In this document: piece after piece, positions 19,008 through 36,301 of the stretch
Layout of the letters: the number at the start of each line of letters is the position of its first letter
How positions within the stretch are numbered: the first letter of the stretch is position 1
Assembly: GCA_963664225.1 (NCBI GenBank)
Contig: OY760937.1
Location: forward strand, 1,504,001 to 1,568,000
DNA length: 64,000 nucleotides
From: Verrucomicrobiia bacterium
Lineage (GTDB): Bacteria; Verrucomicrobiota; Verrucomicrobiia; Limisphaerales; UBA1319
Direction: 5' to 3'
Made by a program: the position numbers and the translations under genes
The notes under the pieces: model-generated
Database searches by the model: none
What the model was told of the DNA's origin: nothing
The model's input: the letters and a program-made list of their open reading frames with translations, nothing else

Positions 19008-20944
19008 TCTGTCACCACCTCTAGTTGAGAGATGCTACCGGCGAAAAGTTTCTCCCCGTCGTAATCGCCAACCACAGCGCCGTTATCGTGTCCAACGCAA
19101 AAGTCTTCCTGCGGCTGTCTGGAAATCAATCCGGGTGCTTTCCCAGCGGCCAGCGGTTTTCCATCCACAACCAACGTCAAAGCGCCATCCCGGGCGAGAT
19201 GCGCTTCAAGTCGGAAGCGTCCCGACGGCGTGTTGCTCGCCACTATGGATACCGGCAGACCATCCTCGCGAACCGTAAAAACCGGCCTGCCTTCACGGAG
19301 GGAAAGCGCGTAACCGAATCCACTGCCGCCCTGTGCGACGATGACACCGTCACGCGTCGATGGCTCCACTTCCACAGAAATACGCAGAGACTTGCCGGCA
19401 ACTTGCGGCGCTTCGTTACTCTCCAGGACATTGCCGATGTCCAGTTTGTTGATCGGCCTCGAGTCGTAATGAGCGCCTAGGAGTTCCGCGGACGGTTCCT
19501 GGCCTGGGAGCCAAAGTCCGACCGGATGAGTCACGCGGCCTGGCGGGCGCACGCCGGGACCGAGGTTGGTGACACCAAGGTCGGCATCCATTTTTGCAAC
19601 GAGCGCCTGGAGCCGTTTCACAACCTCGGGATTATGAGCGGCAATGTTGTTTCTTTCTCCGATATCCGTGTCAAGGTTGTAAAGCGTCGGCGTAAACGGT
19701 TGGTCCGCGGCGGGTGTCGCCCTTGTGCCCGCGGCACGGAAGAGATTTTCATTCTGACGCGCGATGGCGAGTTTCCAGGGCCCGGAGCGCACGGCCTGAA
19801 GTTGGTTGCCGGAAAAGTAATAGTACGCTTCGTGAGGTGATTGGTTGCGCTGACCCAGGAGGATTGGAGAGATGTCCTCACCATCGATCCTGTTGTCCGA
19901 GGGCAGCGTGCCGCCCGAAAGTTTCACGAATGTGGGAAGTACATCGAAATTGGCGGCAACCGCATCGCTTGTGCTCCCGGCTGCGACTTTGCCGGGCCAC
20001 CACGCAATGGTCGGCTCGCGCACTCCACCCTCGAACGTGCCGCCCTTCCCGCCACGCAGCGGACCGGCCACACCGCCATTCGTCCCCTGAGTGAGCCACG
20101 GTCCGTTATCGCTGGTGAATATGACCAGGGTTTTTTCGGCAATGCCTTGCTCACGCAACGTGTCGAGCACTCGCCCAACGCTCGAGTCCAATTCCTCCAC
20201 CCAGTCGCCGAATGGGCCGTTGGCCGACTTGCCTTTAAACTTGTCGCCCGGGTGAACCGGTGTGTGGACGGCCGTGTGCGGCATATAAAGAAAGAATGGT
20301 TCATTCTTGTGATCACGAATGAACTTCACGGCTTCCGCAGTGTATCGCTCCGTGAGCCGGTCCTGGGCGGCGGGTGAAACCGTTTCGATCACCTGCCCGT
20401 CGCGCAAAAGCGGCAGAGGCGGACGGCGATTCGACTTGTTCGCGGCCAATGCGGGCTTGCTGGCCGTCTCACGCCCCCCCATGTCGTTCGAGTAAGGCAG
20501 TCCGAAATAGTGATCGAAACCGTGCCGTGTCGGCAGAAACTCCGCATGGTCGCCGACATGCCACTTCCCAATCGCCATGGTGGCATAGCCCTGTCGCTTG
20601 AGAAGTTCTGCGATCGTATGTTCGTTGGTGCTCAGGCCAATGGCCGCCGCCGGGGGGAGCACCTGTGGGAGCGAAACACGTTTGGCGTAAGAACCGGTAA
20701 GGATCTGTGCCCGCGAAGGGGTGCATACCGGTGCCGCATAAAAACTCGTCAACTTCATTCCTTCACGCGCCAATCGGTCCAGGTGGGGCGTGCGGTTTAT
20801 GGTCGAACCGAAGGGCCCAATGTCCCCGTAGCCCAGGTCGTCGGCCAGAATGAGGATAAAGTTGGGGCGGTCGGCCGCATGGGCGGCCATGAGTCCAAAG
20901 AGCAGCCCTGTAAGCAGGGTGATGCCAAAGCGGAGTTGTTTCAT
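19004..20944 (-). CDS. Cys-type (FGly) sulfatase with C-terminal LamG-like domain
   Basis: PNFILILADDLGYGD, CTPSRAQILTG, GKWH, SDNG; extra ~130-aa beta domain at the C-terminus. Confidence 0.93.
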   Translation of the reverse strand: MKQLRFGITLLTGLLFGLMAAHAADRPNFILILADDLGYGDIGPFGSTINRTPHLDRLAREGMKLTSFYAAPVCTPSRAQILTGSYAKRVSLPQVLPPAAAIGLSTNEHTIAELLKRQGYATMAIGKWHVGDHAEFLPTRHGFDHYFGLPYSNDMGGRETASKPALAANKSNRRPPLPLLRDGQVIETVSPAAQDRLTERYTAEAVKFIRDHKNEPFFLYMPHTAVHTPVHPGDKFKGKSANGPFGDWVEELDSSVGRVLDTLREQGIAEKTLVIFTSDNGPWLTQGTNGGVAGPLRGGKGGTFEGGVREPTIAWWPGKVAAGSTSDAVAANFDVLPTFVKLSGGTLPSDNRIDGEDISPILLGQRNQSPHEAYYYFSGNQLQAVRSGPWKLAIARQNENLFRAAGTRATPAADQPFTPTLYNLDTDIGERNNIAAHNPEVVKRLQALVAKMDADLGVTNLGPGVRPPGRVTHPVGLWLPGQEPSAELLGAHYDSRPINKLDIGNVLESNEAPQVAGKSLRISVEVEPSTRDGVIVAQGGSGFGYALSLREGRPVFTVREDGLPVSIVASNTPSGRFRLEAHLARDGALTLVVDGKPLAAGKAPGLISRQPQEDFCVGHDNGAVVGDYDGEKLFAGSISQLEVVTE

Positions 20945-20992
20945 AATATGAGTAAGCTTAAGGAGGCGCGTTCAAATATTGCTCACAGGTTC

Positions 20993-22561
20993 TTATCGGG
21001 ATTTTCCATTCCCGGGACCGCCCGGGTTTGCATCCACGCCTTGCGCCGGTTGTTCCAAGGCGAATTGATCATTATCCCTGAGTTCCTTCTTCAATCGGTA
21101 GAGCTCTGTTTTCAGTTTGGCGACAGTCCCGACTTGCGCAGGGTCGTTGTAGAGATTGTGCAATTCCGCCGGGTCATGGAGGAGATCATACAATTCCCAT
21201 TGGTCCTTCTTATGGAAGTAAATGAGCTTGTGTGTCTCCGTACGGACGCCGTAGTGAGCGCGGGTATTGTGATCGCCGGGGTCGTGGTAATAACGGTAAT
21301 ACCAACTGGTGCGCCAGTCAGTGGGGCGTTTGCCGGTCAGTAACGGGACCAGGCTGCGACCCTGCATGTCGGCGGGCACGGGAAGGCCCGCGATTTCCAT
21401 GAAGGTCGGCGCAAAATCCACGTTAATGGCCATCGCCGTTTCCGTGGTGGCCGGTTTAACGACTCCCGGCCATCGGACCAGGAACGGCATGCGAATGGAT
21501 TCCTCGTACATGAACCGTTTATCGAATAAACCATGGTCGCCGAGGAAGAATCCTTGATCGCTGGTGTAGATGACAATTGTGTTCGTGCTCAGCCCGGTTT
21601 GGTCAAGGAAGTCGAGCAACCGTCCGACGTTGTCGTCCACGGACTGCACGCAAGCGAGGTAGTCCTGCATGTAACGCTGGTATTTCCATTTCTTGAGTTC
21701 ATCCCCTGCTAGGATCTTCTTTTCGCCATTGAGTTCGATCTCCACCTCAGCCGGCTTGACTGCCAGCCATTTGTTGCGCTCCCCCCCTTTGAGCGAGGCA
21801 GGCGGTTCAAGTTTTAGGTCGCGCCGACTGAGGTCGTCGAACACCCGCTGGCGATTTTCATGCAGGGCATCCGTGCGCCCGGCGTAATCGTCCTGCAAAG
21901 TTGACGGCTCGGGCAACTCCTTATTGGCGAACAGGGCCTTGTTTTTGGCGTCGGGCTCCCAACTTCGGTGCGGGGCCTTGTGCTGGCACATAAGAAAGAA
22001 AGGTTTGTCTTTGGGGCGGTTCTTGAGGAACTCAATGGACAGATCGGTGATGACATCGGTGACGTAACCGGGGAAGTTGGTGCGTCCATCGGGGGTGAGA
22101 AAGGTGGGATTGAAATAGACCCCCTGGCCGGGCAGGATGCTCCAGGAATCAAAGCCGGTTGGATCGCTGCCCAAGTGCCATTTGCCGATCATGCCGGTGT
22201 GGTAACCGGCGGCCTGGAGATATTTGGCGACGGTCGGTTGCGAGCCATCAAAGCGGTTGAAGACAGGCACCCCGTTGATGTGGCTGTACTTGCCAGTGAG
22301 AATCGCTGCCCGGCTCGGGGTGCAGATGGAGTTGACCGCGAACACACGATCAAACCGGATGCCTTCCCTGGCCAGACGGTCCAGATTGGGCGTTTGATTG
22401 ACACGGCTGCCGTACGCGCTGATGGCGTGGGCAGCGTGATCGTCCGACATGATGTAGAGGATGTTTGGTCTGGCTGGGCATTCGGCACCGCCCAGGCCCA
22501 AGCTGAAAGACAGGAATACCGCCAGTGTGACGAACAAGACTTTCACTCTTCTTCTCCCCAC
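20993..22561 (-). CDS. Cys-type (FGly) sulfatase, N-acetylglucosamine-6-sulfatase-like
   Basis: PNILYIMSDDH, CTPSRAAILTG, HKAPHR, SDQGFFLGDHGLFDKRFMYEES. Confidence 0.93.
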   Translation of the reverse strand: MGRRRVKVLFVTLAVFLSFSLGLGGAECPARPNILYIMSDDHAAHAISAYGSRVNQTPNLDRLAREGIRFDRVFAVNSICTPSRAAILTGKYSHINGVPVFNRFDGSQPTVAKYLQAAGYHTGMIGKWHLGSDPTGFDSWSILPGQGVYFNPTFLTPDGRTNFPGYVTDVITDLSIEFLKNRPKDKPFFLMCQHKAPHRSWEPDAKNKALFANKELPEPSTLQDDYAGRTDALHENRQRVFDDLSRRDLKLEPPASLKGGERNKWLAVKPAEVEIELNGEKKILAGDELKKWKYQRYMQDYLACVQSVDDNVGRLLDFLDQTGLSTNTIVIYTSDQGFFLGDHGLFDKRFMYEESIRMPFLVRWPGVVKPATTETAMAINVDFAPTFMEIAGLPVPADMQGRSLVPLLTGKRPTDWRTSWYYRYYHDPGDHNTRAHYGVRTETHKLIYFHKKDQWELYDLLHDPAELHNLYNDPAQVGTVAKLKTELYRLKKELRDNDQFALEQPAQGVDANPGGPGNGKSR

Positions 22562-24000
22562 ACTTTTGGTGTTTTGAAGCCCTTGGTTACGGGTGCGGAC
22601 TTTGGTGGCACGGCAGTTTTGGCGAAGACCTCGAGACGGGCGCGCAGTTCCTTCACCTTCTCCGGTTGTGCCGCCGCCAGATCGTTCTTCTCGTATGGAT
22701 CCCGGGCCAGATTGAATAGTTCGACGAGTTCTTTGGTTGATGCCGCCGCCAGACTTTCGCGGCGCGGTTGAATTGTTTCGCCATCATTCTCGCCATCGCC
22801 AGCAGCCACTTTCCCATTCAACACCAATTTCCAGTCACCAACGCGAATCGCGCCGTTCTGGGGCGTTGAATTAAGCAGGATCTCCGAATGCGGCGATGGC
22901 TTGCCTTCAGCGATGGTGGGCCAGGCGTCCCTGCCGTCCAGCGGCAGCTTCTGTTCTAGTGAAACGCCGACAAGGTTCAGCAACGTGGGATACCAGTCAA
23001 CGATATGGAGGGGCTCGTTCACTATGGAGCCCGGCTTGATGCGTCCATCCCAGGTCGCAAACGCCGCGACCCGGGTGCCGCCTTCGTAAAGGGTGCCTTT
23101 ACCAGCCCGCAACGGGCCATTGCTGGTGACCCGGCCTGGTGCGGGGCCGCCGTTATCACTGGAGAAGATGATGAGTGTGTTCTGGCGCAAACCCTTGTTC
23201 TCCAGCGCTGCGATGATCGTGCCGATGGCTTCGTCCATCGCGGCGACCATGCCTGCATACGTGCGGCGCGGCTCCTTGAGTTGCGCGTACGGCTCCTTGT
23301 ATTTCTCCGGCACCTGATGGGGTGCGTGAACGGCATTGAAGGGCACATAAAGAAACAGAGGCTTGCTCACATTGTGCTCGGTGATGAGCCGCGCCGCCTC
23401 CCTGGCGTTGAGAAATGTGGTGTAGCCTTCATCTCGTGAAACCTTGTCATCCCGATGCCAGTCGAAACCGCCATCACGGATGTGCGTGAAGTAATCCAAA
23501 GCGCCATTGTAATGACCGTATTGATGGTCGAAGCCGCGTCGGGTCGGCAGATAGGCAGGCTCGAAATGGCCCAGATGCCACTTGCCGACAATGGCCGTCT
23601 CGTAGCCGGCTTCCTTCAACGCCTGAGGCAACGTGCGTTCCTCCAGCGGCAAACCGTATTGCGCCCATGGACGCACCACGCCGACCTGCAAACCGTGCCG
23701 GATGGGATAACGCCCGGTCATGAGTCCGGCTCGTGTTGGCGAGCAAACTGGCTGCACATAGAACTGCTCCAACCGCGCACCGGCAGTGGCGAGCCTGTCG
23801 ATATTAGGCGTCTTGATTTCGCTGCCGTGAAAACCGACATCGCCCCAACCAAGATCGTCGGCAAGGATATACACTATATTGGGACGTCGGGAGAATTGGC
23901 CTCCCGGGAGTTCGGCGGACTGATTGGCGCCAGCCACGTTCAGGCCTGGCGCGGCGATGGCGATCGCCATCCAAAGAGCGATAATATTCTGCGTTATCAT
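22543..24000 (-). CDS. Cys-type (FGly) arylsulfatase (arylsulfatase B-like)
   Basis: PNIVYILADDLGWGD, CSPTRAGLMTGRY, GKWHLG, PLRAGKGTLYEGG. Confidence 0.93.
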   Translation of the reverse strand: MITQNIIALWMAIAIAAPGLNVAGANQSAELPGGQFSRRPNIVYILADDLGWGDVGFHGSEIKTPNIDRLATAGARLEQFYVQPVCSPTRAGLMTGRYPIRHGLQVGVVRPWAQYGLPLEERTLPQALKEAGYETAIVGKWHLGHFEPAYLPTRRGFDHQYGHYNGALDYFTHIRDGGFDWHRDDKVSRDEGYTTFLNAREAARLITEHNVSKPLFLYVPFNAVHAPHQVPEKYKEPYAQLKEPRRTYAGMVAAMDEAIGTIIAALENKGLRQNTLIIFSSDNGGPAPGRVTSNGPLRAGKGTLYEGGTRVAAFATWDGRIKPGSIVNEPLHIVDWYPTLLNLVGVSLEQKLPLDGRDAWPTIAEGKPSPHSEILLNSTPQNGAIRVGDWKLVLNGKVAAGDGENDGETIQPRRESLAAASTKELVELFNLARDPYEKNDLAAAQPEKVKELRARLEVFAKTAVPPKSAPVTKGFKTPKVWGEEE

Positions 24001-24186
24001 ATCAAACCGTCCTATTTTGTAATATTGTTTTGATGGCTGTCCCGCCTCTCATCGCTTCCATTATTTGGATCCCATTTTGGTTCAGATTGACCGCGCCAGG
24101 CTGCGGAGGACGCTGCCCGACACGGTTGATGCACGAACTCAGGAGGGATTCATTGGCAGATTAATGACTTGGCGATCACGGACTGG

Positions 24187-27100
24187 CTATCGAACCAACC
24201 TGAAGAATCCAATCGTGTTGTTTGTGCTTGATTCCCGATATGGGCTTGCGGCTCCATCAACTTCCGTAAATGGACCTTTTATGTCGGATGCCCGTTGCAA
24301 CCTGGCGGCGCCTTCCCAAGTGATGATCAATGTTTTACTTTCAACCCGGTAGCCGCCGAATACCGGCAGCACAAGTAGAGGAGGTGGGGTAACCGCCGCC
24401 TGGTAATGCGCTGTGACGCGATCGCTGGTCAGGGCATGATTATAGAGCGACAGTTCGTCAATGACTCCGCTGAAGAAATCATTGGTGCTGACCACCACGC
24501 CATCGTGACGTAAAAACTTGTCACCGTTGCCAATTTGAGTGCCGCTGCCCGTGTGGTTGTAGATTTGCCCTGCCCCGACCGCTTCGCCCGCGAGAATCCC
24601 ATTGGTATACAACCGCAATTGGCCCGCAAATCCCGAATTATCTCCGTCCAGCACAGCCACCACGTGATAACTTTCATTCACCCGCACGGGCGCGCTCACA
24701 TACACCGCACTGTTGCTGCTTCCCAATAAGTTTCCCCACGGCGAGCCAGGCCCCTCGCTTTTGTTATTGAGGGCCTGCCAGACCAGAAGCGCCTCATCCG
24801 GAGTATCGCTGTCTTGAGTGCCGTAAAGATATAGTCCCAATCCCCGGTTTCCGGCGCCCTGTTTGTAAAGCACTGGCGCCTGCACATTGGTTCCACCCCG
24901 GGGCAGACTTGCTGCCTTAAACCAGAATTCGACGGTTTTCTTTGCCCACGGCCCCACGGTGCCATTCAAATCAGAACCATTTGGAATAGTGATGCTCTGC
25001 TTCTGGGCGGCATCGAGTTGAACGGCGGTTCGGTTCAAATTCGTAGCCAGTCCAGGAACCCCCAATTTCGGCCCGTTAATATAAGTTCCCTGTGCCGTAA
25101 TAAGCGTGTCCAGTTTGGCGGTCAGACTATAGGCAATGCTGCCATTGGTTTCGCCAAACGGCCAGTACCTTACCGGATCATCGGCAAGGACCTCCTCGGC
25201 GTAGCTCACCTCTGTCTGGAACGTCACTTTTGTGTTCAACACATTGGGAATCCCAGCCCGGTCCCGAATGCCGCTGATAGTCAACTGATAAGCCTGACCC
25301 GTGGTTTGCGGACTGGTTCGGAGCGTTACCTGGCGTGCGCTGGAATCAAGGATGGCTCCCAGGATTTGCAGCGGCGCCACAGCGTAATTGGCCGTATTCG
25401 TCGCGGTGACTTCGTCCACCGGCTCATCAAAAACAAGACGCACTTCATTCAGAGTTCCCCCAAAACCCCGAACCTGCTGAAGCACCGGCGCGGCAATGTC
25501 GCTTTGCACCGTGACTTGCGCCGTGGAACTGCTCGTTTCGCTGAATTCATTTCGCAAGGTGACGCGGTAGCTGCCTTCCGTATTGGCAGAAAGAACCAAA
25601 GTGAGCTCGCGATTTGTAACTCCAGGTAAAACCGTGTTATTCCGATACCACTCGTACGTGTAAGGGCTTGCCCCCGTCGGAGTCACCGTCAAGATCACCA
25701 CGCTATTCTCCAAGCCGGTCAGGTTTGTCAAATCATGCCCGGGCACAATGCCAACCGGTCCGATATTATAGGGCTGGCCTGCGGGCGCGGCAAAAGCAAA
25801 CGTCACGACCGTCGGATTGGGGGTGAGACGGCTCGGCTGTGCGGCTTGATCGAGGACGTCGCGAATAGTCAGCTCATATTGGGTCCCAAGCTGGAAGTTA
25901 AAGCTTCCGGCAAGTTGAACGGAACTTTGGTCCGCCAGCAATACCGCCGTGGTAATGGGCACATTCGCTCCCGCCAGACTCCGCAGAGAATAATTTGCCA
26001 GATTCGTCGAGGTGGCCGGATCAACCGGCTCGTTGAATGTGACCCGAACCCCGTTGGGATTACCCCGATGGTCCACGGTTTGAACCGCAGGCGGAATCAA
26101 GTTGGATGCGTCATGAGTTATTGCCAGTTGATGAAGCGCCGTCACGCGCTCGCCGGTCAGGGCCTCGTTGAAAAGTGCCAACTCATCCAGGATGCCGCTG
26201 AATGGGCTTTTGCTGGCTGGATTGCCGCCGTCGTGCAAAAGCACGTCGCCATTGGCAATCTGGATGTTTGAACTGTGGTTGTATAATTGCCCGGCTCCAG
26301 GAGCTGTTCCTGCCAGCACGCCGTTGGTGTAAAGCCGCAATTCGCCGGCAACCCCGTTTGTATCGCCATCCAGGACCGCGACCACATCATAAACCTCACC
26401 CAGGCGAATGGGGGCCGACACATAAACCGAGGTGCTGCCGTCACCGACTTTTGTGCCCCAGGGCGAACCGGCCCCTTCCGACAGATTGTTAAAAGCGTTT
26501 AACACCAACAAGGCTTCTGTCGGATTGGCCACATCCTGGCTGCCATACAAATAGAGTGTCAAACCACGATTTGCACCCCCTTGTTCAAAGACCACTGCGC
26601 TTCCGTTGGTGCTCCCGCCGCGTGGCAACGAGGTCGCCTTAAACCATAGGCTGATCGATTTTTTCGCCCAGGGACCGGAGGTGATGTTCACATCCACCCC
26701 GTTGGGCACATTGATGCTCTGGTTTCTGGCGCCATCAAACTGAATCGCGGTGGAACCTCCCAAATTAGCCACCAGTCCCGGGACGCCAAATTGAGGTCCG
26801 TTTACCAGCGTCGCCTGCCCCGTAGTCAGGGGATCGTTAATCGTGGTTAAACTGTTTGCGATCGGACTGCCATCTATTTCCTCAAAGCGCCAGTAACGCG
26901 CGGGAACATCGGCCACAATCTCGTCGTTGTAGTGGCGCGACGTCACAAAATTGACTTGTGCGAACAATGGACTCGCCGATATGGACTGGTCGGTAATCCC
27001 GTTCAGATGCAGAACATAATTGGCGTCCGGAGTCAGAGGTGATGTTTCCAGCACCACCGAGCGTCCGTCAGCCGATTGGCTGGCGGACAGAATCTGGGCC

Positions 27101-30100
27101 CTGTCCACTGAGTAAAGACTCGCATTGGTTGCAGTGGCGGGGCTCAAGGCTTCATCGAATTGGATCTCCACTTCACTTCGAATCGTGGCCAAGCCCCGGA
27201 CAGCCACAATGCGCGGAGGCAATGTGTCGGGCTGAACGACAAGACTGGCCGTCCGGCTGATCACACCGCTGAACTCATTGCTGATCGTCACATAATACTG
27301 TCCAGCCGTTGCCGGGGCGCCAACGACTTGAAGCAATCGATTCGTCTCACCCGCGAGCGCTGTGTTATTCTGATACCATTGGTATTTGAATGGACTGGCG
27401 CCCTGGGGCACGATTGAAAACGTGGTCGTTGCGGTCTCGTTGATCGTGCGATCCACCAAATCCGTTCCCGATTGAATGGTGACCGGACCCAGGTCCCCAT
27501 CCGCATAATTAATCCGGATATCATCCAGCCAATGCGATTCAAAGGCACTGCTGGTGCGGGCGCCAAAACCGATCTGGGCATTTTTCAAGCCGGTAAAACC
27601 TGTGGAAAATTGTTCCAGAATGGTGGTGCCACCATAGGTCAATGTTAACCGGCCATCCCGCTTTAGATTGATATCCACGTCCACCCATCCGGTGGTGGTT
27701 AAGGCGGGTACTGGAGCGACTCCCGTTGGAACATTGGTGATCACCTGGCCCTTCCACTTAACCGCAATGGATGGAGAAACATCGGCGAGTCCTGATTTTG
27801 CGGTGTCAAACGCCACGATGAATCCCTGACCGGTCGTCGTGATGGCGTTGGCATTGTAACCCTCTTCCGGATAAGGATACGTGCCCGCGGGCAAATCCGA
27901 CGCGAGGTTGAAGCTGAATCCTTCTCCGGCCGGGATGCTGGCATCGGAAATCCTCGTCTTAAAACTCACTCGGATTTGTTCCACATCATTGCGCTCGGTA
28001 AAGAGAATGCTCCCATTCTGGTTGGAACTTCCATCCGTCAGCTTCAGGTATCCGCTGCCATCATAGCTGTTATTGGTCCGCACTTCCGTGTTGCCATATT
28101 TCTTGATGGTTGCGGGCAAAGCGCCGTTAAAGTCATACAACACACCGCTCGAAGCCTGGTATGTCAATGGGAGCGACGTTGGATTAGGCTGCAGCGTGCG
28201 ACCTGTTGGAGAGCTGTCTTTTAAATCATGTGCCAGCAGTTGATAGCTCTGGCCGGGCTGGAAATTGAAGGATCCAGCCAATTGGACACTGCTCGCATCA
28301 TCCAGCAAAGTGGCGGATTGAATGGCTAATGGCGTGCCGTTGGCCGACGATAACGTGTAATGGTCGATCGCCGTTGCCAATGCAGGAGATAGAAAGTCCG
28401 AGAATAATACCCGCACCCCGTTGGGATTGCCCCGCGTATCCACCTGGGTAATCGTCAAAGGTTGCTGCTGAATCCCCACGTCCACCGTGTTGGCAAAGTT
28501 ATAAAGCACCGTCACCCGCTCGGTGGTCAATGCGGTATTGTAGATTGCCAACTCATCAATCACACCATCGAATGGGCTCTTATTGGATGGATTGACACCG
28601 TCATGAAGCAGAATAGTGCCATTGCCAATTTGAATATTGCTGGAATGATTATAGAGCTGCCCGGCGCCTTTGGCGGTTCCCGCCAATGTTCCGTTCAGGT
28701 ACAGACGCAATTCGCCGGCTGTTCCGGTTTTGTCGCCGTCGAGAACGGCGACGACATGATATACCTGGCCAGTTTGGACAGGCGTTGACACATACACAGA
28801 CGAGCTGCCATCGCCACTCTTGGTCCCCCAAGGAGAACCCGGCCCATCCGTTAAGTTATTAAATGCGTTGAATGCCAGCAAGGCTTCTGAGGGATTCGCC
28901 ACATCCTGGCTGCCGTACAAATAGATCCCATATCCCCGATTAACCCCACCGGCCTCAAAGATCACGGCGCTTCCCTTGGCGGCTCCCCCGGAGGGCAACG
29001 AGGTCGCCTTGAACCAGAAGGAAATGGTCCGCTTGTCCCAGGGACCTGTATTAATGTTCAAATCTGAACCGTTAGGCACGGTGATGCTTTGAATCCTGGC
29101 GGCGTCAAATTGGATGGCTGTGGATCCAACCAGATTGGAAACAAGTCCGGGCACACCAAGTTTTGGTCCATTGACCAAAACCGATTGCCCTGTAATCAAA
29201 GGATCCAGCAGTGTAACGAGGCTGTCAACCGTTCCACTATTCTCTGCTTCCTCAAAGCGCCAATAACGGACGGGCTGATCTGCGAGCGCTTCCTCTGAAT
29301 AGGTCTTCGTGCCACGGAAGCGGACCAGTGTTGTCAACGCATTGCCAGCCACCGATATATCTTTCAATCCGTAAATGTGCAGGACATAGGAGAAGCCGAT
29401 GTTTTGAGGTGATGTCGTCAGAATGACCCACCGGGCATCCGCGGAAAGTCGGGCACTGAGAATTTGCAGCCCATCCACCCTGTAAATGCTGGCGTTGGTC
29501 GCTGTCGAGATGTCGAGTGCTTCATCAAATTCAAGTTGCACCTCGCTATTGGCTCCCGCCAGTCCCCGGATGGAAACCAGTCGCGGCGGAGTGGTGTCTT
29601 TGATGAATCCAACTGCAGCCACCCGGCTGGTCACGCTGCTGAACTCATTGCTGATCACCACCTTGTATTGCCCGACTGCGCCTGCTGTGGCCGTGAAGTG
29701 GAGAACATGGTTTGTTTCCGGGAGAATGGCGGTGTTATTAAAATACCACTGATAATAAAAGGGCGAGGCACCCGCCAATTGCACCGATAAATCGACCGCC
29801 TGGTTTTCAGCCGCCTGGACATCCTGCAAATCCGTCGTAATGCTTACCGGACCAAGTCCACCATCGACCGGCGCCACAAACGAAAACGAACTGACGGTGG
29901 GATTCGGGTCCAGACTGTTGGCGGTTAATGCCTGGTCCTTGATGTCACGCACTGTCAATTGATAGCTTTGACCCACCTGGAAATTAAATATTCCCGCCAA
30001 TTGGACACTCGTGCCAGCGTTCAATGACTTTGCCGACTGAATGACCAGCACCGCACCGCCGGGGCCCTGCAGGCTGTAATGGCTTAAGTTTGTCGCGGCA

Positions 30101-31116
30101 TCTTCCTGAACAGGCTCTGAGAAGGTCACTCGCACCCCGTTGGGATTGCCCCGATGATCCACCAGAGTCACCTGGGGCGCAAGAGTGTCAGGAGTAACTG
30201 CAAGAACGGTGGTGGCGCTTGACAGTGTTCCCTGTCCATTGGAAATCGTCACCTGGAACTGGTCCCCATTGGCCGATGCCGAGATGGAGTCCAAAGCCAG
30301 GTAGGAGAGGTTCTCGCCTGCAATCACCTGTCCATTGCGTCGCCAGACAAAAATCGCGGGCTGGGCGGCAATGACATCCGTTTCCAATAATAACCGTTGA
30401 CCTTCCGCCACATTCACGCTGGCTGGCAAATCGCCCCCATTCAACCCATCCGTGTTAAAGAAAGGCGCCGCGTTCGGGGTCAACCTGTTCAAAAATGGAT
30501 CCACTGGATGCTGAGCCAGATGCAATGCGGGAATTATTTCCTCCACACCATCAGGACGCCGCCAGCCGACTTGGAGAAAAGCGATCCCCCCACCCTGTTG
30601 GTGAAAGACTTCAAAATAGTATTTATTGCCACGCACCAGTGAAATGGACTGGCTCCGGCGTTGATCCAGGCGCAACCCATCGAACAAAGTAATGCCCGAC
30701 TGCGATTCAAAAGCGATGACCCGCTTCGTCGTCTCCGCATGATCCGTGCTCAACCAAAGCTCGGCATTGTCGTCGCTGGCAATGTAAAATACGTAATCGC
30801 CATTCTGAGGGGCCTCCAAATATCCGTGAATCCACGAGCCAAAATCAGTTCCGCTGTTATCGCGGCCTTGAAGACCGTAGATGAGCGCCCCGTTCGGCGC
30901 GGGATTAAAGTCGTCCAGTTGTTCGCGAAAAGTCGGTTGATCGGGGAAGCTGGCTGCATTTTTCAAAGTACTCACACTTTGCCGCACCGTGGCGGAATCG
31001 ACCGATGTCGAATCGCCCTCATAAAACAGACGGGCCACCGAGCCTGCCGTTACATTCAAAGGCGCCACTGCCAAGAGCAACAGTGCCGGAATTGTCATCC
31101 AATATTTAGCATTCAT
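24187..31116 (-). CDS. Giant secreted/surface protein: PA14, Ig-like domains, three LamG domains, L-type-lectin-like domain, C-terminal FFRL domain
   Basis: PA14 GDYVFYIASDDNAELWL; Ig YQWY-NN repeats; three PxRYWxFxE..YHVVAV..GVIDEL LamG units; ends GFFRLVR. ATG 31116 chosen; the ORF track extends to TTG 31185. Confidence 0.85.
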   Translation of the reverse strand: MNAKYWMTIPALLLLAVAPLNVTAGSVARLFYEGDSTSVDSATVRQSVSTLKNAASFPDQPTFREQLDDFNPAPNGALIYGLQGRDNSGTDFGSWIHGYLEAPQNGDYVFYIASDDNAELWLSTDHAETTKRVIAFESQSGITLFDGLRLDQRRSQSISLVRGNKYYFEVFHQQGGGIAFLQVGWRRPDGVEEIIPALHLAQHPVDPFLNRLTPNAAPFFNTDGLNGGDLPASVNVAEGQRLLLETDVIAAQPAIFVWRRNGQVIAGENLSYLALDSISASANGDQFQVTISNGQGTLSSATTVLAVTPDTLAPQVTLVDHRGNPNGVRVTFSEPVQEDAATNLSHYSLQGPGGAVLVIQSAKSLNAGTSVQLAGIFNFQVGQSYQLTVRDIKDQALTANSLDPNPTVSSFSFVAPVDGGLGPVSITTDLQDVQAAENQAVDLSVQLAGASPFYYQWYFNNTAILPETNHVLHFTATAGAVGQYKVVISNEFSSVTSRVAAVGFIKDTTPPRLVSIRGLAGANSEVQLEFDEALDISTATNASIYRVDGLQILSARLSADARWVILTTSPQNIGFSYVLHIYGLKDISVAGNALTTLVRFRGTKTYSEEALADQPVRYWRFEEAENSGTVDSLVTLLDPLITGQSVLVNGPKLGVPGLVSNLVGSTAIQFDAARIQSITVPNGSDLNINTGPWDKRTISFWFKATSLPSGGAAKGSAVIFEAGGVNRGYGIYLYGSQDVANPSEALLAFNAFNNLTDGPGSPWGTKSGDGSSSVYVSTPVQTGQVYHVVAVLDGDKTGTAGELRLYLNGTLAGTAKGAGQLYNHSSNIQIGNGTILLHDGVNPSNKSPFDGVIDELAIYNTALTTERVTVLYNFANTVDVGIQQQPLTITQVDTRGNPNGVRVLFSDFLSPALATAIDHYTLSSANGTPLAIQSATLLDDASSVQLAGSFNFQPGQSYQLLAHDLKDSSPTGRTLQPNPTSLPLTYQASSGVLYDFNGALPATIKKYGNTEVRTNNSYDGSGYLKLTDGSSNQNGSILFTERNDVEQIRVSFKTRISDASIPAGEGFSFNLASDLPAGTYPYPEEGYNANAITTTGQGFIVAFDTAKSGLADVSPSIAVKWKGQVITNVPTGVAPVPALTTTGWVDVDINLKRDGRLTLTYGGTTILEQFSTGFTGLKNAQIGFGARTSSAFESHWLDDIRINYADGDLGPVTIQSGTDLVDRTINETATTTFSIVPQGASPFKYQWYQNNTALAGETNRLLQVVGAPATAGQYYVTISNEFSGVISRTASLVVQPDTLPPRIVAVRGLATIRSEVEIQFDEALSPATATNASLYSVDRAQILSASQSADGRSVVLETSPLTPDANYVLHLNGITDQSISASPLFAQVNFVTSRHYNDEIVADVPARYWRFEEIDGSPIANSLTTINDPLTTGQATLVNGPQFGVPGLVANLGGSTAIQFDGARNQSINVPNGVDVNITSGPWAKKSISLWFKATSLPRGGSTNGSAVVFEQGGANRGLTLYLYGSQDVANPTEALLVLNAFNNLSEGAGSPWGTKVGDGSTSVYVSAPIRLGEVYDVVAVLDGDTNGVAGELRLYTNGVLAGTAPGAGQLYNHSSNIQIANGDVLLHDGGNPASKSPFSGILDELALFNEALTGERVTALHQLAITHDASNLIPPAVQTVDHRGNPNGVRVTFNEPVDPATSTNLANYSLRSLAGANVPITTAVLLADQSSVQLAGSFNFQLGTQYELTIRDVLDQAAQPSRLTPNPTVVTFAFAAPAGQPYNIGPVGIVPGHDLTNLTGLENSVVILTVTPTGASPYTYEWYRNNTVLPGVTNRELTLVLSANTEGSYRVTLRNEFSETSSSTAQVTVQSDIAAPVLQQVRGFGGTLNEVRLVFDEPVDEVTATNTANYAVAPLQILGAILDSSARQVTLRTSPQTTGQAYQLTISGIRDRAGIPNVLNTKVTFQTEVSYAEEVLADDPVRYWPFGETNGSIAYSLTAKLDTLITAQGTYINGPKLGVPGLATNLNRTAVQLDAAQKQSITIPNGSDLNGTVGPWAKKTVEFWFKAASLPRGGTNVQAPVLYKQGAGNRGLGLYLYGTQDSDTPDEALLVWQALNNKSEGPGSPWGNLLGSSNSAVYVSAPVRVNESYHVVAVLDGDNSGFAGQLRLYTNGILAGEAVGAGQIYNHTGSGTQIGNGDKFLRHDGVVVSTNDFFSGVIDELSLYNHALTSDRVTAHYQAAVTPPPLLVLPVFGGYRVESKTLIITWEGAARLQRASDIKGPFTEVDGAASPYRESSTNNTIGFFRLVR
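24400..30180 (-). repeat. Intragenic triplication of an (Ig-like)n + LamG module
   Basis: Three copies of RGNPNGVRV..VQLAGxFNFQ and of GPWxKxxxxxWFKAxSLP..GAGQ(L/I)YNH; DNA CCGTTGGGATT(G/A)CCC recurs near 26051, 28418 and 30137. Confidence 0.8.
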
Positions 31117-31224
31117 AACCAGTAGGGAAAAAAGGAATCGTTTATTAAATTGAGATTGTTGATTGGAGCTGGAGTTTGCATTCAACCCCAGCCCATCATT
31201 TTTAAGTGAGGAGTGTTCGGGAGT

Positions 31225-32151
31225 TCAGCGCAACCACGCGGGGAACTGCACCTTGGTGGCATAGGCCTCTGTATCGAAATCCCGGTTCCATTTGAGTTTC
31301 CAGAGCTCTCGCAATCGGACATTCCGAACCGAACCGTCGAAAAACAGCACGTTGGGTCCCTTGCCGTGGCGGGGAACAACAAAATGCTGCATTTCCTGCG
31401 ATTCGAAGTTATTGATGGTGGAATAGTTGCCTGGTGAGGGCGGCGGCATATAGGCCGATCGTTCACCATACCAGGGACCACCGCCACGCCACATGCTATC
31501 GGCCATCAATGGAATCTTGGTTGTATTGCCATTGACATTCAGGGATCCCCAATGATATTCCAACTTGCGACCTTGAATATCCTGTTTGGAATTGTAGATC
31601 CAACTGTTAACGCCATAGCTGGCCACTTCACCATGGGTAAACTCTCCCTCTCCCATGATGTACGCGGTATCGATGCCTCCAAAGGCTTCAAGGCCACTGC
31701 CATCCTCCGCCACGCGCCTTTTGGTTGCCACCGGGCATACCAACAAATCAGCCTTTTTGCGCCAGAATCCCTGCATAGCATTGAGCCATTCGCCGCGAGC
31801 CCATCCCACGGATTGACCCGTCGGAAATTTCTCCCCGTTGTCGCTGCTGTAAATGTTCCAATTGATGCCCCACTGTCTTAAATTGGAGATGCAACTGATG
31901 GACCTGGCTTTTTGTTTTGCTTTTGCCAGGGCTGGCAGGAGCATGGAGGCCAAAATCGCGATGATTGCGATGACGACCAGTAATTCTATGAGGGTGAATC
32001 CCCGGTCGGCAGCGTCCTCCAAGGGCGGATCGTTCTGTTTTTCGCCTGGCGCGCGAAAGCCTGCCAGGATGGTCCCCTTTGACGGGACGCCGTTGTTTGC
32101 GGTATCAGGGCTTTCAGGCATCGTGCCAGCAAGCCATCCATTTGTTTTCAT
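31225..32151 (-). CDS. Prepilin-type N-terminal cleavage/methylation protein with H-X9-DG motif
   Basis: [49 protein letters not shown]. Confidence 0.9.
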
Positions 32152-32251
32152 GATATTTAGTATTTAAGTTGCGCATGAAAACCTCCAGTGGACTGGTTAG
32201 TTCACGATTCTGTTTCTTTGTTAAGCGAGCGTTCAGTGGTCTGTTATGTCT

Positions 32252-32274
32252 ATATACTACTTGTTTGGTCGTTA
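32252..32274. promoter_or_regulatory. Putative operator ATATACTAC-N7-GTCGTTA
   Basis: Half-sites identical to the reverse-complement copy at 35146-35168. Confidence 0.65.
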
Positions 32275-32463
32275 TTATGGACAAATAAAAGAGCGTTTAT
32301 AATTCAACCAGGGAGCCTTTGAATTCCAGCGATTCAAGGCTGCTGCAATGCGGATATGGCGGTCAAATTACAATTTCCGCTTGATTCGCCGCGACATCGA
32401 CGCTCCGTCTTATCGTGCTGCGCCGCGTCAAAAGTGAATCGATTTGACAGCCAATTTCACACT

Positions 32464-32486
32464 ATATACGATCTCTTTTGTCGTTC
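32464..32486. promoter_or_regulatory. Putative operator ATATACGAT-N7-GTCGTTC
   Basis: Same motif and spacing, in the divergent promoter region. Confidence 0.6.
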
Positions 32487-32570
32487 TTTACGCTCTTATC
32501 TATAGCGTTCTTTGGAGTTGTGTCAACTCCAGGTTGAAAGTATTTTAAACATATTATCCGTTCTTACGTT

Positions 32571-34919
32571 ATGCATTATGTGATGTTGTTTTTGCTCCCG
32601 CATTTGTGCGGCTCTCTGCTGGCCGTGCGTGGCCTGGGCCAGACACCCCCTCCCCCGGCTGTCGGCGGCTTCACCGGATCTTCCGAATGCCGATCCTGCC
32701 ACCAGGATTTTTATGCCCGCTGGGCGCCCTCTTTTCATGGCTTGGCAATGCAACCGTTTACAACCCGCTGGGCGCGCGAGCATCTGACACCTCAGCCTTC
32801 CCCTGTTCGCATCAAGGACCATGAATACCGCGTGGAGCTGAACACACAAGAGGGGCGCATGCTTGAAACAGACCCCCGCGGAAAACAGGATTACCCGATT
32901 GTTCAAGTCCTTGGAGGCAAGAATGTCTATTATTTTATAACCACGCTGAATCGCGGTTTTTTACAGGTTCTGCCCGTGGCATATGATGTGCGCCGCAAGG
33001 AATGGTTCGATACCACGCTCAGCGCGATGCGCCATTTTACTGAGGTTTCGGAAGAGGCCTTGAACTGGAAAGAACGCCCGCTCACCTTCAATACGGGTTG
33101 CTATAAATGCCATGTCAGCCAGTTATCCAATCATTATGACCTCGACAGCGACGCCTATCACACCACCTGGAAAGAGCCCGGCATTAATTGCGAAACTTGC
33201 CATGGGCCGGGAGGGGAACATGTGCGGACTTTTCGGGCCGCCGCCTCTGAGGGCGCCAAACCGAAGGCATTAAACATCATTAGCACAAAACAGTTCACAC
33301 ATGACCAGATTAACGACCTCTGTTCCTCCTGCCATTCCAAAATGATTTTGCTGACAACCACTTTCAGCCCTGGCGATCGATTCTTCGACCATTTCGACCT
33401 GGTCGCGTGGGAAAATCCGGATTTCCATCCGGACGGGCGCGATTTGGGCGAAAATTACACAGTGACTCAATTTCGTTCCAGCGCGTGCGTGAAGGACGGG
33501 CAACTCGACTGTTTGCATTGCCACACCTCCAGCGGACGCAACCGCTTTACCGGCGCTCAAGTCAACCACGCGTGCCTTCCGTGTCATGCGGATAAGGTGA
33601 GTAACGCACCCGCTCATTCGCACCATTCCTCCGGGAGCTCGGGCAACCAGTGTGTTTCCTGCCACATGCCCACCACGGAATTCGCCCGAATGCGAAGGAC
33701 CGACCATTCGATGCGGCCACCGACTCCCGCAGCCACCCTCGCGTTCAAATCCCCGAATGCCTGCAGTTTATGTCATACAAATGAGTCCCCCCAATGGGCT
33801 GATCAACAAGTGCGTCGATGGTGGACTCGTGATTTCCAGGCCCCGGTTCTAAAACAAGCGGAGTTGGTTACCGGCGCCCGCCGTGGCGACTGGAGCCGCC
33901 TCACGAACATTCTGGAGGCCATACAAAGCCCGGGTGAAAAGGAAATTTATAAAACGTCCCTTATTCGTTTGATACGAGGCTGCGAGCGTGATGAGGTCCG
34001 CGTGGTGCTGCTGGGCTGTCTAAAAGATCCCTCGCCTTTAATCCGCGCGAGCTCGGCGGAATCCCTGGGCGCGCAAATAGTCCCGCAAACCGTTTCGGGG
34101 CTGTTGGCCGCCACGCGCGACGACTATCGCCTGGTCCGTGTTCGGGCCGCCGCAGCGTTGGCACCCGTGTCCGACGATTTGATTCCAATCACTGAACGCA
34201 GCTTCCTGCAAAGGGCTTACACAGAATTGGAGGCCGGTTTGCTGGCCCGGCCGGATGATTTCTTGTCCCATTACAACTTGGGTAATTATTATCAACAACG
34301 CGGCAATCCCAGTGCGGCCGTTAATTCCTTTCGCGCGGCCCTCCGATTGCAGACCAATTATGTACCCGCCTGGATCAATGTTTCGCTTGCCTACAACATG
34401 CTGCAGCAAAATAATCTCGCGGAAGAGGCCCTGCGCCAGGCCCTGCAACTAAGTCCCACCAATGCGGCGGCCCATTTTAACCTCGGGTTGTTGCTCGCCG
34501 AGTTGAGCCGCTTTGAAGAAGCCGAAGCCGGTTTTCGCGCCGCCATAAAGTTTGAACCCCGGTCGGCCCAGGCGGCTTACAATCTCGGGGTGCTTTTGGC
34601 TGCGAAAAGCCACGGCGAATCCATTAATTGGTGCCGCAAAGCCGCCGAATGGCAGCCGGACGAGCCAAAATATGCGTACACACTGGCATTCTACCTGCAG
34701 CAAAATGGGGATCGTTCAAGGGCCATCCAATGGCTGCAATCTTTTGTCAAAAGGCCAGCCGCGGATGCATCCATTTTTGATTTGCTCGGAAAACTCCTTG
34801 AAACATCCAATCCCGCTGAAGCCGCCCAGGTTTATCGAAACGCCGCCGCCAATGAACGGCTGTCCGCATCCGACAGGCAAATGTTTACGATCCGAGCTGG
34901 CAACTTGCTCAATAAATAA
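32571..34919 (+). CDS. Octaheme cytochrome c fused to HEAT and TPR repeats
   Basis: Eight CxxCH motifs (CRSCH, CYKCH, CETCH, CSSCH, CLHCH, CLPCH, CVSCH, CSLCH); HEAT DPSPLIRASSAESL; TPRs HYNLG/HFNLG/AYNLG. Confidence 0.9.
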   Translation: MHYVMLFLLPHLCGSLLAVRGLGQTPPPPAVGGFTGSSECRSCHQDFYARWAPSFHGLAMQPFTTRWAREHLTPQPSPVRIKDHEYRVELNTQEGRMLETDPRGKQDYPIVQVLGGKNVYYFITTLNRGFLQVLPVAYDVRRKEWFDTTLSAMRHFTEVSEEALNWKERPLTFNTGCYKCHVSQLSNHYDLDSDAYHTTWKEPGINCETCHGPGGEHVRTFRAAASEGAKPKALNIISTKQFTHDQINDLCSSCHSKMILLTTTFSPGDRFFDHFDLVAWENPDFHPDGRDLGENYTVTQFRSSACVKDGQLDCLHCHTSSGRNRFTGAQVNHACLPCHADKVSNAPAHSHHSSGSSGNQCVSCHMPTTEFARMRRTDHSMRPPTPAATLAFKSPNACSLCHTNESPQWADQQVRRWWTRDFQAPVLKQAELVTGARRGDWSRLTNILEAIQSPGEKEIYKTSLIRLIRGCERDEVRVVLLGCLKDPSPLIRASSAESLGAQIVPQTVSGLLAATRDDYRLVRVRAAAALAPVSDDLIPITERSFLQRAYTELEAGLLARPDDFLSHYNLGNYYQQRGNPSAAVNSFRAALRLQTNYVPAWINVSLAYNMLQQNNLAEEALRQALQLSPTNAAAHFNLGLLLAELSRFEEAEAGFRAAIKFEPRSAQAAYNLGVLLAAKSHGESINWCRKAAEWQPDEPKYAYTLAFYLQQNGDRSRAIQWLQSFVKRPAADASIFDLLGKLLETSNPAEAAQVYRNAAANERLSASDRQMFTIRAGNLLNK

Positions 34920-35045
34920 AGTCAGCCTTCTACTTCATATGGTATTTTGAGTCGTTTATGATCACTTTGTGGCAAATTTTGAATTCATCTTAAATATCTC
35001 AGGAAAAACGTTTCCTGCGCTTGACTCACGAATCGAACGGGGTGT

Positions 35046-35070
35046 TAATACGATCCTGCTTATCGTATAT
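35046..35070. promoter_or_regulatory. Putative operator, perfect ATACGAT-N7-ATCGTAT palindrome
   Basis: taATACGAT cctgctt ATCGTATat upstream of yezD-cysTWA. Confidence 0.7.
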
Positions 35071-35145
35071 AAGATCGATACGATCTGAGCAGTCTTTGTG
35101 TCTATTTGGCCATGCAATGTCGCATGGCCATTTATTGGCTTTTAA

Positions 35146-35168
35146 TAACGACTCTATTGGTAGTATAT
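35146..35168. promoter_or_regulatory. Putative operator TAACGAC-N7-GTAGTATAT overlapping the YezD start codon
   Basis: Reverse complement ATATACTAC caataga GTCGTTA matches 32252-32274 in both half-sites. Confidence 0.65.
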
Positions 35169-35451
35169 GTCACGCACTGAAACAATTGACCGGACCGAAT
35201 CAAGCGCAGGGATTGAATCCTGGCTGGCTGAAGTCCAGAACCGGGTCCACTCCATCCAATATGGCCTCGTTCAAATTACGCTTCACGAGGGTCGGGTGAC
35301 TCAGATTGATGCCACAGAGAAAATGAGAATTCCCTGGGAGGGTGCCCAGTCAGAGGACCGACGCCTCAACGGGAGGCCGGCAGGCGACCAGATGACTCCA
35401 TTGAACGAAATGAAGCGTCTCTCTGCTGCGCTGACGGACAAGAACATCTAA
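35167..35451 (+). CDS. YezD/DUF2292 (OscA-like) small protein
   Basis: [36 protein letters not shown]; family typically precedes sulfur-uptake genes; TAATG overlap with cysT. Confidence 0.8.
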
Positions 35452-36290: not shown

Positions 36291-36301
36291 ACTCTTGTAT
36301 T

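Follow-up and report, generated by a model that had tools for sequence, protein, structure and literature searches.

Introduction

Why does a bacterium of the Verrucomicrobiia encode an exported protein of 2,309 amino acids (aa) whose mature chain contains neither methionine nor cysteine? The gene for this giant protein lies at 24187..31116, on the minus strand, of the window, as the whole 64,000-nucleotide (nt) stretch analysed here is called (contig OY760937.1, positions 1,504,001 to 1,568,000; assembly GCA_963664225.1). A first reading of the sequence, below called the original prediction, had proposed that the protein is an abundant surface lectin or scaffold, made under sulfur starvation to capture sulfated glycans. 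The giant is probably a member of a sulfur-starvation regulon that is built without sulfur, its sulfur amino acids having been purged. This interpretation is carried by the composition of the entire protein family, by the sulfur poverty of proteins encoded with the giant or concerned with sulfur acquisition, and by a control element that the operon of the giant has in common with sulfate-uptake and assimilation operons.

Composition of the giant protein

The open reading frame (ORF) starts with ATG; an alternative TTG start upstream, at 31185, would add 23 residues. Reading of the ORF together with a Pfam scan gives the order of its parts as a signal peptide, a PA14 domain (residues 52-196), an immunoglobulin-like (Ig)/Big_5 region, three tandem modules and a C-terminal domain of about 65-70 residues. 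The modules, each about 570 residues long and composed of Ig, Big_5 and Laminin_G_3 domains, occupy residues 418-991, 1206-1777 and 1784-2243 and are 51-58% identical in a self-comparison. An insert at about 991-1205 separates the first module from the second.

The only methionines are residues 1 and 7, both situated in the signal peptide, and there is no cysteine. The tripeptide A24-G25-S26 (window 31039-31047), which closes the signal peptide, is invariant in all 46 aligned family members. With the signal peptide ending at this tripeptide, about 2,284 residues remain for the mature chain, all of them free of sulfur, and the exact count agrees with the original prediction that neither residue occurs beyond the signal region. 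The A-G-S boundary is conserved beyond an ordinary signal peptidase I site, which hints at a specific processing step at this position.

The genome is a single contig of 5.78 Mb with a G+C content of 56%. Our own ORF calling, made without a gene caller, gave 3,677 non-overlapping ORFs of at least 150 aa, in which Met accounts for 2.10% and Cys for 1.25% of the residues, 3.35% together. At this background rate the binomial probability of the giant's composition, a comparison proposed in the original prediction, is 8.6e-35, the lowest value in the genome. Among the 199 ORFs of at least 1,000 aa the giant is the only one with no Met or Cys. The second lowest has 6 Met and no Cys in 1,098 residues (0.55%), so that none of the other 198 large proteins of the organism is equally sulfur-free; this comparison, named in the original prediction as one that could overturn it, does not do so.

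Composition of the family and its paralogues

Homologues were collected by a word-index search, and the 86 proteins of the set were divided at a gap in score, from 1017 to 710 bits (P0051/P0052), rather than by composition. Met and Cys were counted after position 40. The 50 higher-scoring proteins, the query included, are 34-49% identical to the query and contain 27 Met and 39 Cys in 89,888 residues; none exceeds 0.28%, and 18 of them have neither residue. The 36 lower-scoring paralogues contain 790 Met and 359 Cys in 81,305 residues, with a minimum of 0.48%. Met and Cys together thus make up 0.07% of the family, compared with about 1.36-1.41% of the paralogues. In an exhaustive HMMER search of 1.84 billion cluster representatives, the best 15 matches (at least 717 bits) all have 0.33% Met+Cys or less, and below them paralogues at 1-2.7% are intermixed with short sulfur-free fragments. 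The sulfur-free composition is common to the whole orthologous family and is absent from the paralogues. Where the source of a family member is named, it is a metagenome-assembled genome of the Verrucomicrobiae or Verrucomicrobiales. The family is patchily distributed, with a clear orthologue in three of the 41 related genomes searched (G000, G008 and G030).

A composition of this kind might arise by chance, or as a by-product of beta-rich repeats together with internal duplication. Proteins with Ig and LamG domains are generally low in Met and Cys (1.36% in the paralogues), and the similarity of the three modules reduces the number of independent positions. The probability of finding neither residue in 2,284 positions is 2.6e-14 at the 1.36% rate of paralogues with matching domain types, and even when the three repeats are counted once (about 1,140 residues) it is 1.7e-7. 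Moreover, all 50 family members show the trait, even at an identity as low as 34%, and none of the 36 paralogues does. This contrast rules out chance or domain composition, and the explanation, which retains practically no probability, is refuted.

The residues might instead be avoided in an oxidising extracellular setting, in the presence of cytochromes or reactive oxygen, rather than to save sulfur. Met and Cys are the most oxidisable residues, genes with PSCyt cytochrome domains are neighbours of the giant, an AhpC gene is found in one family locus (L028), and Trp is mildly depleted in the family relative to the paralogues (0.66x). However, Tyr, His and Phe are not depleted (1.10-1.13x), and the only strong depletions are those of Met (0.03x) and Cys (0.11x). 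Homocysteine synthase, the sulfate-binding protein Sbp and CysA, which are cytoplasmic or periplasmic and are encoded behind the same control element, are sulfur-poor as well, which extracellular oxidation would leave unexplained, and the sulfatases encoded next to the giant retain exactly one Cys, which is catalytic. Resistance to oxidation is an unlikely cause of the composition.

It is also conceivable that the sulfur-free giant replaces, under starvation, a sulfur-containing paralogue of the same function. The genome encodes PA14-headed giant paralogues with ordinary sulfur content, for example an ORF of 1,864 aa with 33 Met (genome 2451216-2456810). The best paralogue, however, shares the N-terminal module only, at 29% identity. 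It consists of three PA14 domains, GLEYA and DUF1349, lacks Laminin_G_3, and adjoins neither a pilin-like gene nor a sulfur gene. With no sulfur-containing counterpart of the same architecture, isoform substitution was rejected for this genome; it is a very unlikely explanation.

Four giant Ig-repeat proteins of other lineages (P0133, P0125, P0114 and P0149; 2,434-4,372 aa) have a Met+Cys content of 0.14-0.35%. Sulfur-poor giants may be more widespread than the present family.

Sulfur-poor proteins of sulfur acquisition

When the 3,478 ORFs of 150-1,000 aa are ranked by sulfur poverty, ranks 6, 15, 16 and 18 belong to a single cluster. It encodes a DUF3034 protein (1 Met), a homocysteine synthase (1 Met), a Porin_O_P porin (3 Met) and Sbp (1 Met), all of them without Cys, and is followed by a second cysT-cysW-cysA set. 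This second low-sulfur island is situated at G000:C1:4360184-4368858 (L051 4184-12858). Ranks 21 and 26 are occupied by sulfatases 3 and 1 of the giant's operon. The high ranks of the metY/sbp cluster and of the sulfatases show that this organism spares sulfur in its sulfur-acquisition proteins. The other top ranks are mostly outer-membrane and exported proteins.

The control element

Directly upstream of the giant, on the same strand, lies a pilin-like gene (31225..32151, minus strand). It is preceded, 124 nt upstream of the ORF, by a 24-nt element, ATAACGAC-N8-GTAGTATAT, at 32252..32275 on the minus strand. A second copy, at 35145..35168 on the plus strand, ends at the start codon of a small DUF2292 ORF and is 306 nt upstream of cysT. 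The third copy lies 304 nt upstream of the DUF3034-metY-porin-sbp cluster. There are exactly three copies in the 5.78 Mb of the genome, both strands included, and all three are oriented towards their operons. By our arithmetic about 0.003 copies would be expected genome-wide by chance. About 40 nt align among the three copies, and a shorter core, TAACGAC-N7-11-TAGTATA, still has three genomic copies when one mismatch is allowed. In the original prediction the giant was placed between a putative sulfur operator and three sulfatases; the common control element is indeed found upstream and the sulfatases downstream.

The DUF2292 ORF (35167..35451, plus strand; 94 aa) resembles the sulfur starvation response protein OscA, at 32.4 bits against a cut-off of 85. 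It is followed on the same strand by cysT (35451-36290) and cysW (36260-37189), both above the NCBIfam equivalog cut-off, and by cysA (37186-38262), above the sulfate-ABC ATPase subfamily cut-off, whose product, counted after residue 30, has 3 Met and no Cys. The DUF2292-cysTWA set sits 3-4 kb from the giant's operon, on the opposite strand. Its promoter is near-identical over about 170 nt to the promoter of the second island, which includes a GGCCATGC...GCATGGCC hairpin just before the common block.

Inside the 24-nt element, at 32255-32273, is a degenerate palindromic core, [AT]ACGAC-N7-GT[CA]GT[AT]. A second copy of the palindrome, with one mismatch, is found at 32467..32485 in the same divergent intergenic region. 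A spacing of N8 was rejected, as it gave 7 matches compared with 8-23 in shuffles; the half-sites are correctly aligned with N7. The strict form of the core is [AT]ACGAC-N7-GTCGT[AT]. If A as well as C is accepted at the third position of the right half-site, together with up to one mismatch, the palindrome has 35 genomic matches, 13 of them intergenic. Seven of these 13 are situated at five sulfur promoters: two at the giant's operon, one at cysTWA (35147-35165), two at metY/sbp, and one each at cysK (243 nt upstream) and cysI (96 nt upstream). The cysK and cysI sites played no part in deriving the palindrome.

The palindrome is also found elsewhere. In 28 related loci, all 10 matches with up to one mismatch are intergenic, compared with 2.9 matches per shuffle located anywhere, and the 52 kb of intergenic DNA of these loci contains 14 core sites with up to one mismatch, against about 1.5 expected by our arithmetic. 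Core sites lie upstream of the pilin-giant operon in seven other genomes (L031, L032, L033, L036, L037, L038 and L039). In L033 another is present where the sulfite reductase gene starts, and in L037 another lies before the ORF that precedes cysK. Three family-carrying genomes searched in full have a palindrome at the giant's operon, perfect in two of them and with one mismatch in the third. From the arrangement of these sites we infer that the giant's operon would be co-regulated with sulfate-uptake and cysteine-synthesis genes.

The intergenic region with the two palindromes is bordered on its other side by a gene for a multihaem cytochrome/TPR/HEAT protein (32571..34919, plus strand), which is divergent from the pilin-giant operon; matching Pfam families are found upstream of the giant's operon in L031 (L031:3-1985). 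The protein has 20 Cys, a richness explained by the requirement of haem binding for Cys. A scan of 18800-35500 for sigma-70 promoters and terminators gave counts not above those of shuffles (11 vs 10.1; 25 vs 19.4). A one-mismatch variant of a different motif, GATCGTATATA, which is not the palindrome, occurs 118 nt upstream of an ORF at 6305-10549. This ORF came up as sulfatase-like in a phmmer screen and was rejected as such, as Pfam gives PQQ_2 and Laminin_G_3 only.

A candidate regulator

In two of these three genomes the palindrome is located between a gene for an Rrf2-family regulator and a sulfur-poor Porin_O_P gene, as a perfect site in G041 and with one mismatch in G043. Another perfect palindrome in G043 is upstream of a sulfur-poor DUF3034 gene. 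The two regulators (L079:1569-2027 and L090:950-1447) each have three Cys, arranged as C-x9-C-x5-C. An orthologue with 74% identity is encoded in the genome of the window (G000:C1:2327322-2327798), where it does not adjoin a good site. It is a candidate regulator of the sulfur promoters. A palindrome that overlaps a promoter block is typical of repressors, and because the palindrome overlaps the conserved promoter block here, the putative regulator is seen as a repressor.

The CymR-type repressor, a member of the Rrf2 family, controls cysteine and sulfur-uptake genes in Firmicutes. The present case resembles it in having a palindromic predicted operator before sulfur genes and, in the two genomes mentioned, an Rrf2-family gene by the palindrome. 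It differs in the three Cys of the Rrf2 proteins, the spacing of which we take to be typical of Fe-S-binding Rrf2 proteins rather than of CymR, and in that the regulator gene of the window's genome lies away from a good site.

Assessment of the probable sulfur-starvation regulon

A number of observations weigh against membership of the giant in a sulfur-starvation regulon. Exported and outer-membrane proteins are generally sulfur-poor and dominate the sulfur-poor list of the genome, BamA, TolC-like and HlyD-like proteins ranking high, and giant Ig-repeat proteins of other lineages are sulfur-poor with no known link to sulfur (0.14% in P0133). The pilin-like partner (about 3% Met+Cys) and the DUF1501 proteins found in many family loci (2.5-3.1%) are not sulfur-poor, two loci (L014 and L030) have no sulfur gene adjoining the giant, and sulfatases with 2.6% and 4.7% Met+Cys are encoded near two of six sulfur-normal paralogues. 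The element was defined partly from promoters in which it was later found. Two of its three exact copies stand at cysTWA clusters that are paralogous and have about 170 nt in common through descent; because these two promoters are paralogous copies, the independent event is the copy before the giant's operon. In the three other family-carrier genomes, the counts of palindromes with up to one mismatch are below those of a reversed-pattern control (31 vs 66, 9 vs 41 and 22 vs 37), and three of the eight perfect sites adjoin genes without a sulfur link. As the counts are not over-represented, the argument in these genomes rests on the position and quality of the sites.

The first two of these observations favour a different explanation, in which the giant forms a surface or S-layer-like coat that is made at all times and in very large amounts, and has been purged of sulfur on account of this abundance rather than through starvation-dependent induction. 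S-layer proteins, like other surface proteins exported in mass, typically contain little or no sulfur, and the giant resembles them in being large, exported, beta-rich and devoid of Cys and Met. Yet it differs from S-layer proteins in that no SLH or other S-layer domain is present among the nine Pfam families found in it at E <= 0.01, and the trait is absent from the other 198 giant proteins of the genome. In addition, a unique promoter element common to the giant and to the sulfate uptake and assimilation operons ties the giant to the predicted sulfur regulon and points to regulated expression. A constitutive coat is rather unlikely.

The original prediction is thus partly supported. Its part on sulfur sparing and sulfur starvation is strongly supported by the family trait, by the sulfur-poor neighbours and by the promoter element. 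Surface location, high abundance and capture of sulfated glycans are conjectures drawn from the domain types (PA14 and Laminin_G_3) and the adjoining sulfatases, and in most relatives the gene after the giant does not encode a classical sulfatase.

The operon and its neighbours

The genes around the giant were compared in loci fetched via the family alignment. Of 28 such loci, 24 contain a sulfur-poor member (at most 0.48%, some ORF starts being over-extended) and the remaining four contain sulfur-normal paralogues (0.82-1.42%). Addition of the window and of L014, with L013 and L034 counted once, gives 26 distinct family loci, 24 of which have downstream sequence.

The pilin-like gene is directly upstream of the giant in 17 of the 20 loci scanned (the exceptions are L024, L043 and L045). 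The 17 orthologues are 43-59% identical to the protein of the window, which has 7 Met and 2 Cys, and have two invariant Cys. The prepilin N-terminal cleavage/methylation motif, at ORF residues 49-72, is recognized by PF07963 (37.0 bits vs 21.2) and TIGR02532 (36.3 vs 16.3), and the C-terminal part has an H-x9-DG-like stretch. The protein matches pilin and pseudopilin models in the N-terminal helix only and stays below the cut-offs of the named equivalogs GspG (33 vs 88.85 bits), GspH (32.4 vs 80) and PilA (31.1 vs 400).

A complex of giant residues 26-420 with pilin-like residues 85-308 was predicted with a score of 0.36 (the median of 0.61, 0.00 and 0.36), the best of three controls scoring 0.00. 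In the calibration 116 of 157 solved complexes and 2 of 215 mismatched pairs attained the mark, 18 of the 157 and both mismatched pairs with scores of 0.60 or less, and the result was rated as weak support. The runs agreed on at least 0% of contacts, and the pLDDT of the partner was at least 82. Binding between the giant and the pilin-like protein is treated as a hypothesis, for which the prediction is not counted as evidence.

The gene that follows the giant encodes a PSCyt1/DUF1549/DUF1553 protein in 17 of 24 loci, a sulfatase in four (the window, L019, L033 and, after a 138-aa ORF, L031), a MoxR/Bat protein in two (L014 and L030) and an integrase in one (L027). DUF1501 follows DUF1553 in 11 of the 17 loci, and a gene with a rhodanese domain follows DUF1501 in seven of these 11. 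The DUF1553 products contain 1.05-1.4% Met+Cys. The rhodanese-domain products contain 0-1 Met+Cys in six of seven loci; the exception, in L026, has three, its ORF start being over-extended. A gene for a metallo-beta-lactamase-fold protein is present in four family loci, and all four products have 0-1 Met+Cys.

The rhodanese-domain proteins (L038:17728-18579, L024, L026, L028, L039, L041 and L044) are exported and about 280-330 aa long, with the domain at the C-terminus. In the one examined, that of L038, alignment to 6mxv places Ser at the position of the catalytic Cys. These products may be inactive anion-binding modules or rhodanese folds of other chemistry. DUF1501 has a weak sequence match to the solved arylsulfatase 7aj0 (E 0.002), and no DUF1501 homologue is found among the ORFs of the window's genome. 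The loci with either arrangement, together with this DUF1501-free genome, indicate that sulfatases and the DUF1549/1553-DUF1501 pair share one operon slot.

In the window, a gap of 186 nt, in which no terminator-like site was found 3' of the giant, separates the giant from three sulfatase genes on the minus strand. Sulfatase 1 (22543..24000; 485 aa) has a signal peptide and a single Cys, C86, in its C-S-P-T-R formylglycine site, and contains 3 Met and 1 Cys after residue 30 (0.88%). Sulfatase 2 (20993..22561; 522 aa; C-T-P-S-R site) is ordinary, with 2.44% Met+Cys, and sulfatase 3 (19004..20944; 646 aa; C-T-P-S-R site) is sulfur-poor, with 1.14%. Sulfatase 2 starts before the end of sulfatase 1, and a MoxR gene starts at 19007, in overlap with the stop of sulfatase 3. 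All three match PF00884 (218.5, 186.9 and 194.5 bits vs 25) and are under the NCBIfam arylsulfatase equivalog cut-off. Sulfatases are few in this genome: Pfam confirms four, of which three follow the giant; the fourth has 4 Cys and 12 Met. The four sulfatases by the giant in different loci (sulfatase 1 of the window and those of L019, L033 and L041) each have one Cys in the whole protein, in a C-S-P-T-R site, and 1-4 Met besides the initiator.

Genes of sulfur assimilation accompany the giant in several loci. Genes resembling cysK occur in L019, L031 and L037, the one in L019 immediately preceding the pilin-like gene on the same strand. Other such genes encode sulfite reductase (L033), rhodanese-YgaP (L031 and L033) and TauE (L019). 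At the six loci of sulfur-normal paralogues there is no upstream pilin-like gene, DUF1549/1553-DUF1501 pair, cysK, sulfite reductase or rhodanese gene. Adjacency of a sulfatase alone was rejected as a specific marker, as it also occurs at two of these six loci.

Domains of the giant

The PA14 domain (PF07691) scores 51.4 bits against a gathering threshold of 24, and Laminin_G_3, a ConA-like lectin/glucanase domain (PF13385), scores 142.5 bits against 27.6 over three stretches. In some homologues the insert is annotated, in precomputed Pfam data, as a bacterial L-type lectin domain (PF18483), which the Pfam scan of the giant itself did not find. An AlphaFold2 model of the N-terminal 440 residues (mean pLDDT 73.6) gave generic tandem-Ig matches only in the PDB, such as titin and IgLON, with a TM of about 0.2.

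The last 70 or so residues end in FFRLVR. A C-terminal domain of about 70 aa closing with [FYW][FYW]R[LVIA] occurs in 113 of the 3,677 ORFs of the genome, most of the giant exported ones included. It is a generic C-terminal domain of the exported giants of this organism, not special to the sulfur-free one, and is probably a shared sorting or anchoring domain in this Verrucomicrobium.

Another Laminin_G_3 protein of the window, encoded at 54001-54990 on the plus strand, represents the opposite extreme of composition, with 34 Met in 329 aa and 12% Met+Cys. About 2.5 kb upstream of its ORF is a Cus-like efflux set consisting of an OEP gene (44777-46192), an HlyD gene with HMBD repeats (46219-48222) and a pump ORF of 1,094 aa (48234-51518). 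Judged from its sequence, the Laminin_G_3 protein may be a Met-rich metal-binding protein.

Proposed mechanism

Upon sulfur shortage a repressor, possibly of the Rrf2 family, would leave the palindrome at these promoters, and the giant's operon would be transcribed together with the genes for sulfate uptake and cysteine synthesis. The giant would be exported by the Sec route and, being sulfur-free, would cost the cell no sulfur on export. Compared with a paralogue of equal size, the saving by our arithmetic is about 30 sulfur atoms per molecule. Outside the cell, polymeric organosulfur compounds, sulfated glycans for example, may be bound by the PA14, lectin-like and LamG modules, about five of them of lectin type. 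Sulfate would be released from the bound substrates by the sulfatases expressed along with the giant, or by DUF1501 as a member of the sulfatase superfamily, and would enter by way of the sulfur-poor porin, Sbp and CysTWA. The giant may be tethered, or exported, by its pilin-like partner.

A wider proposal, possible though doubtful, is that the cluster is a hitherto undescribed extracellular organosulfur-scavenging machine of Verrucomicrobiota under an Rrf2-type sulfur sensor, in which the giant may ride on a pilin-like stalk. The cluster is taken here as consisting of the pilin-like protein, the giant, PSCyt1/DUF1549/DUF1553, DUF1501, the rhodanese-like protein with Ser for Cys and the metallo-beta-lactamase-fold protein. 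Were this proposal true, it would provide the first functional foothold for the DUF1549/DUF1553-DUF1501 pair, which is abundant in Planctomycetes-Verrucomicrobia-Chlamydiae (PVC) genomes, because the pair is interchangeable with classical sulfatases in the giant's operon.

Relation to known systems

Low-sulfur-content proteins induced by sulfate starvation were reportedly described in Pseudomonas putida by Scott et al. 2007. In the sulfur-sparing response of Rhodococcus qingshengii, proteins made under sulfur limitation are poor in Met and Cys (PMC8557817). The signature is known from proteins of sulfur acquisition, such as binding proteins, sulfatases and enzymes of assimilation. The acquisition proteins of the present genome, namely Sbp, homocysteine synthase, CysA and the sulfatases, carry the same low-sulfur signature. 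The difference is that here an exported multi-lectin protein of about 2,300 aa contains no sulfur at all and belongs to a family of Verrucomicrobiota, its induction being predicted only. In contrast to the Ssu, Tau and Ats systems, the operon contains a pilin-like gene and DUF1549/1553-DUF1501, none of which is part of those systems.

The sulfur-depleted phycobiliprotein set of cyanobacteria is said to have been reported by Mazel and Marliere 1989, and a bias in the atomic composition of assimilatory enzymes by Baudouin-Cornu et al. 2001. Selection of this kind strips sulfur from the enzymes of sulfur assimilation and from abundant proteins made when sulfur is limiting, as it appears to have done here. 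Yeast Pdc6 and the cyanobacterial phycobiliproteins are isoform replacements under sulfur starvation. Whereas the known cases are isoform replacements or enzymes, the giant has no counterpart of the same architecture in its genome.

In freshwater Verrucomicrobia, proteins with pfam13385 (Laminin_G_3), sulfatases and PSCyt2 genes beside an unknown family have been noted as neighbours, and it was suggested that sulfated polysaccharides provide sulfur as well as carbon (He et al. 2017, PMC5615132). The same gene families adjoin the giant. Nothing was known of the functions of the PSCyt genes according to the part of that paper available, and the same part does not mention a sulfur-free composition, a pilin-like partner or a common operator, in which the present neighbourhoods differ.

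No description of the giant family, its sulfur-free composition, its operon or its operator was found in the literature searched. Sulfur sparing is a known principle; the protein family is new, as are its operon and predicted regulon.

Implications

Sulfur sparing has been known for enzymes, binding proteins and pigment proteins, and an exported family of about 2,000 residues takes it to completion, with no sulfur at all in 18 of its 50 members. The sulfur-free giant is a marker, readable from sequence alone, of a sulfur-starvation regulon in a poorly studied and mostly uncultured phylum. It brings with it hypotheses in the form of a predicted operator, a candidate regulator, a function for the pilin-like H-x9-DG protein and, above all, a possible role of the DUF1549/DUF1553-DUF1501 pair in organosulfur acquisition. 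The findings suggest that Verrucomicrobia invest in large extracellular binding proteins that mine sulfate esters when sulfate is scarce.

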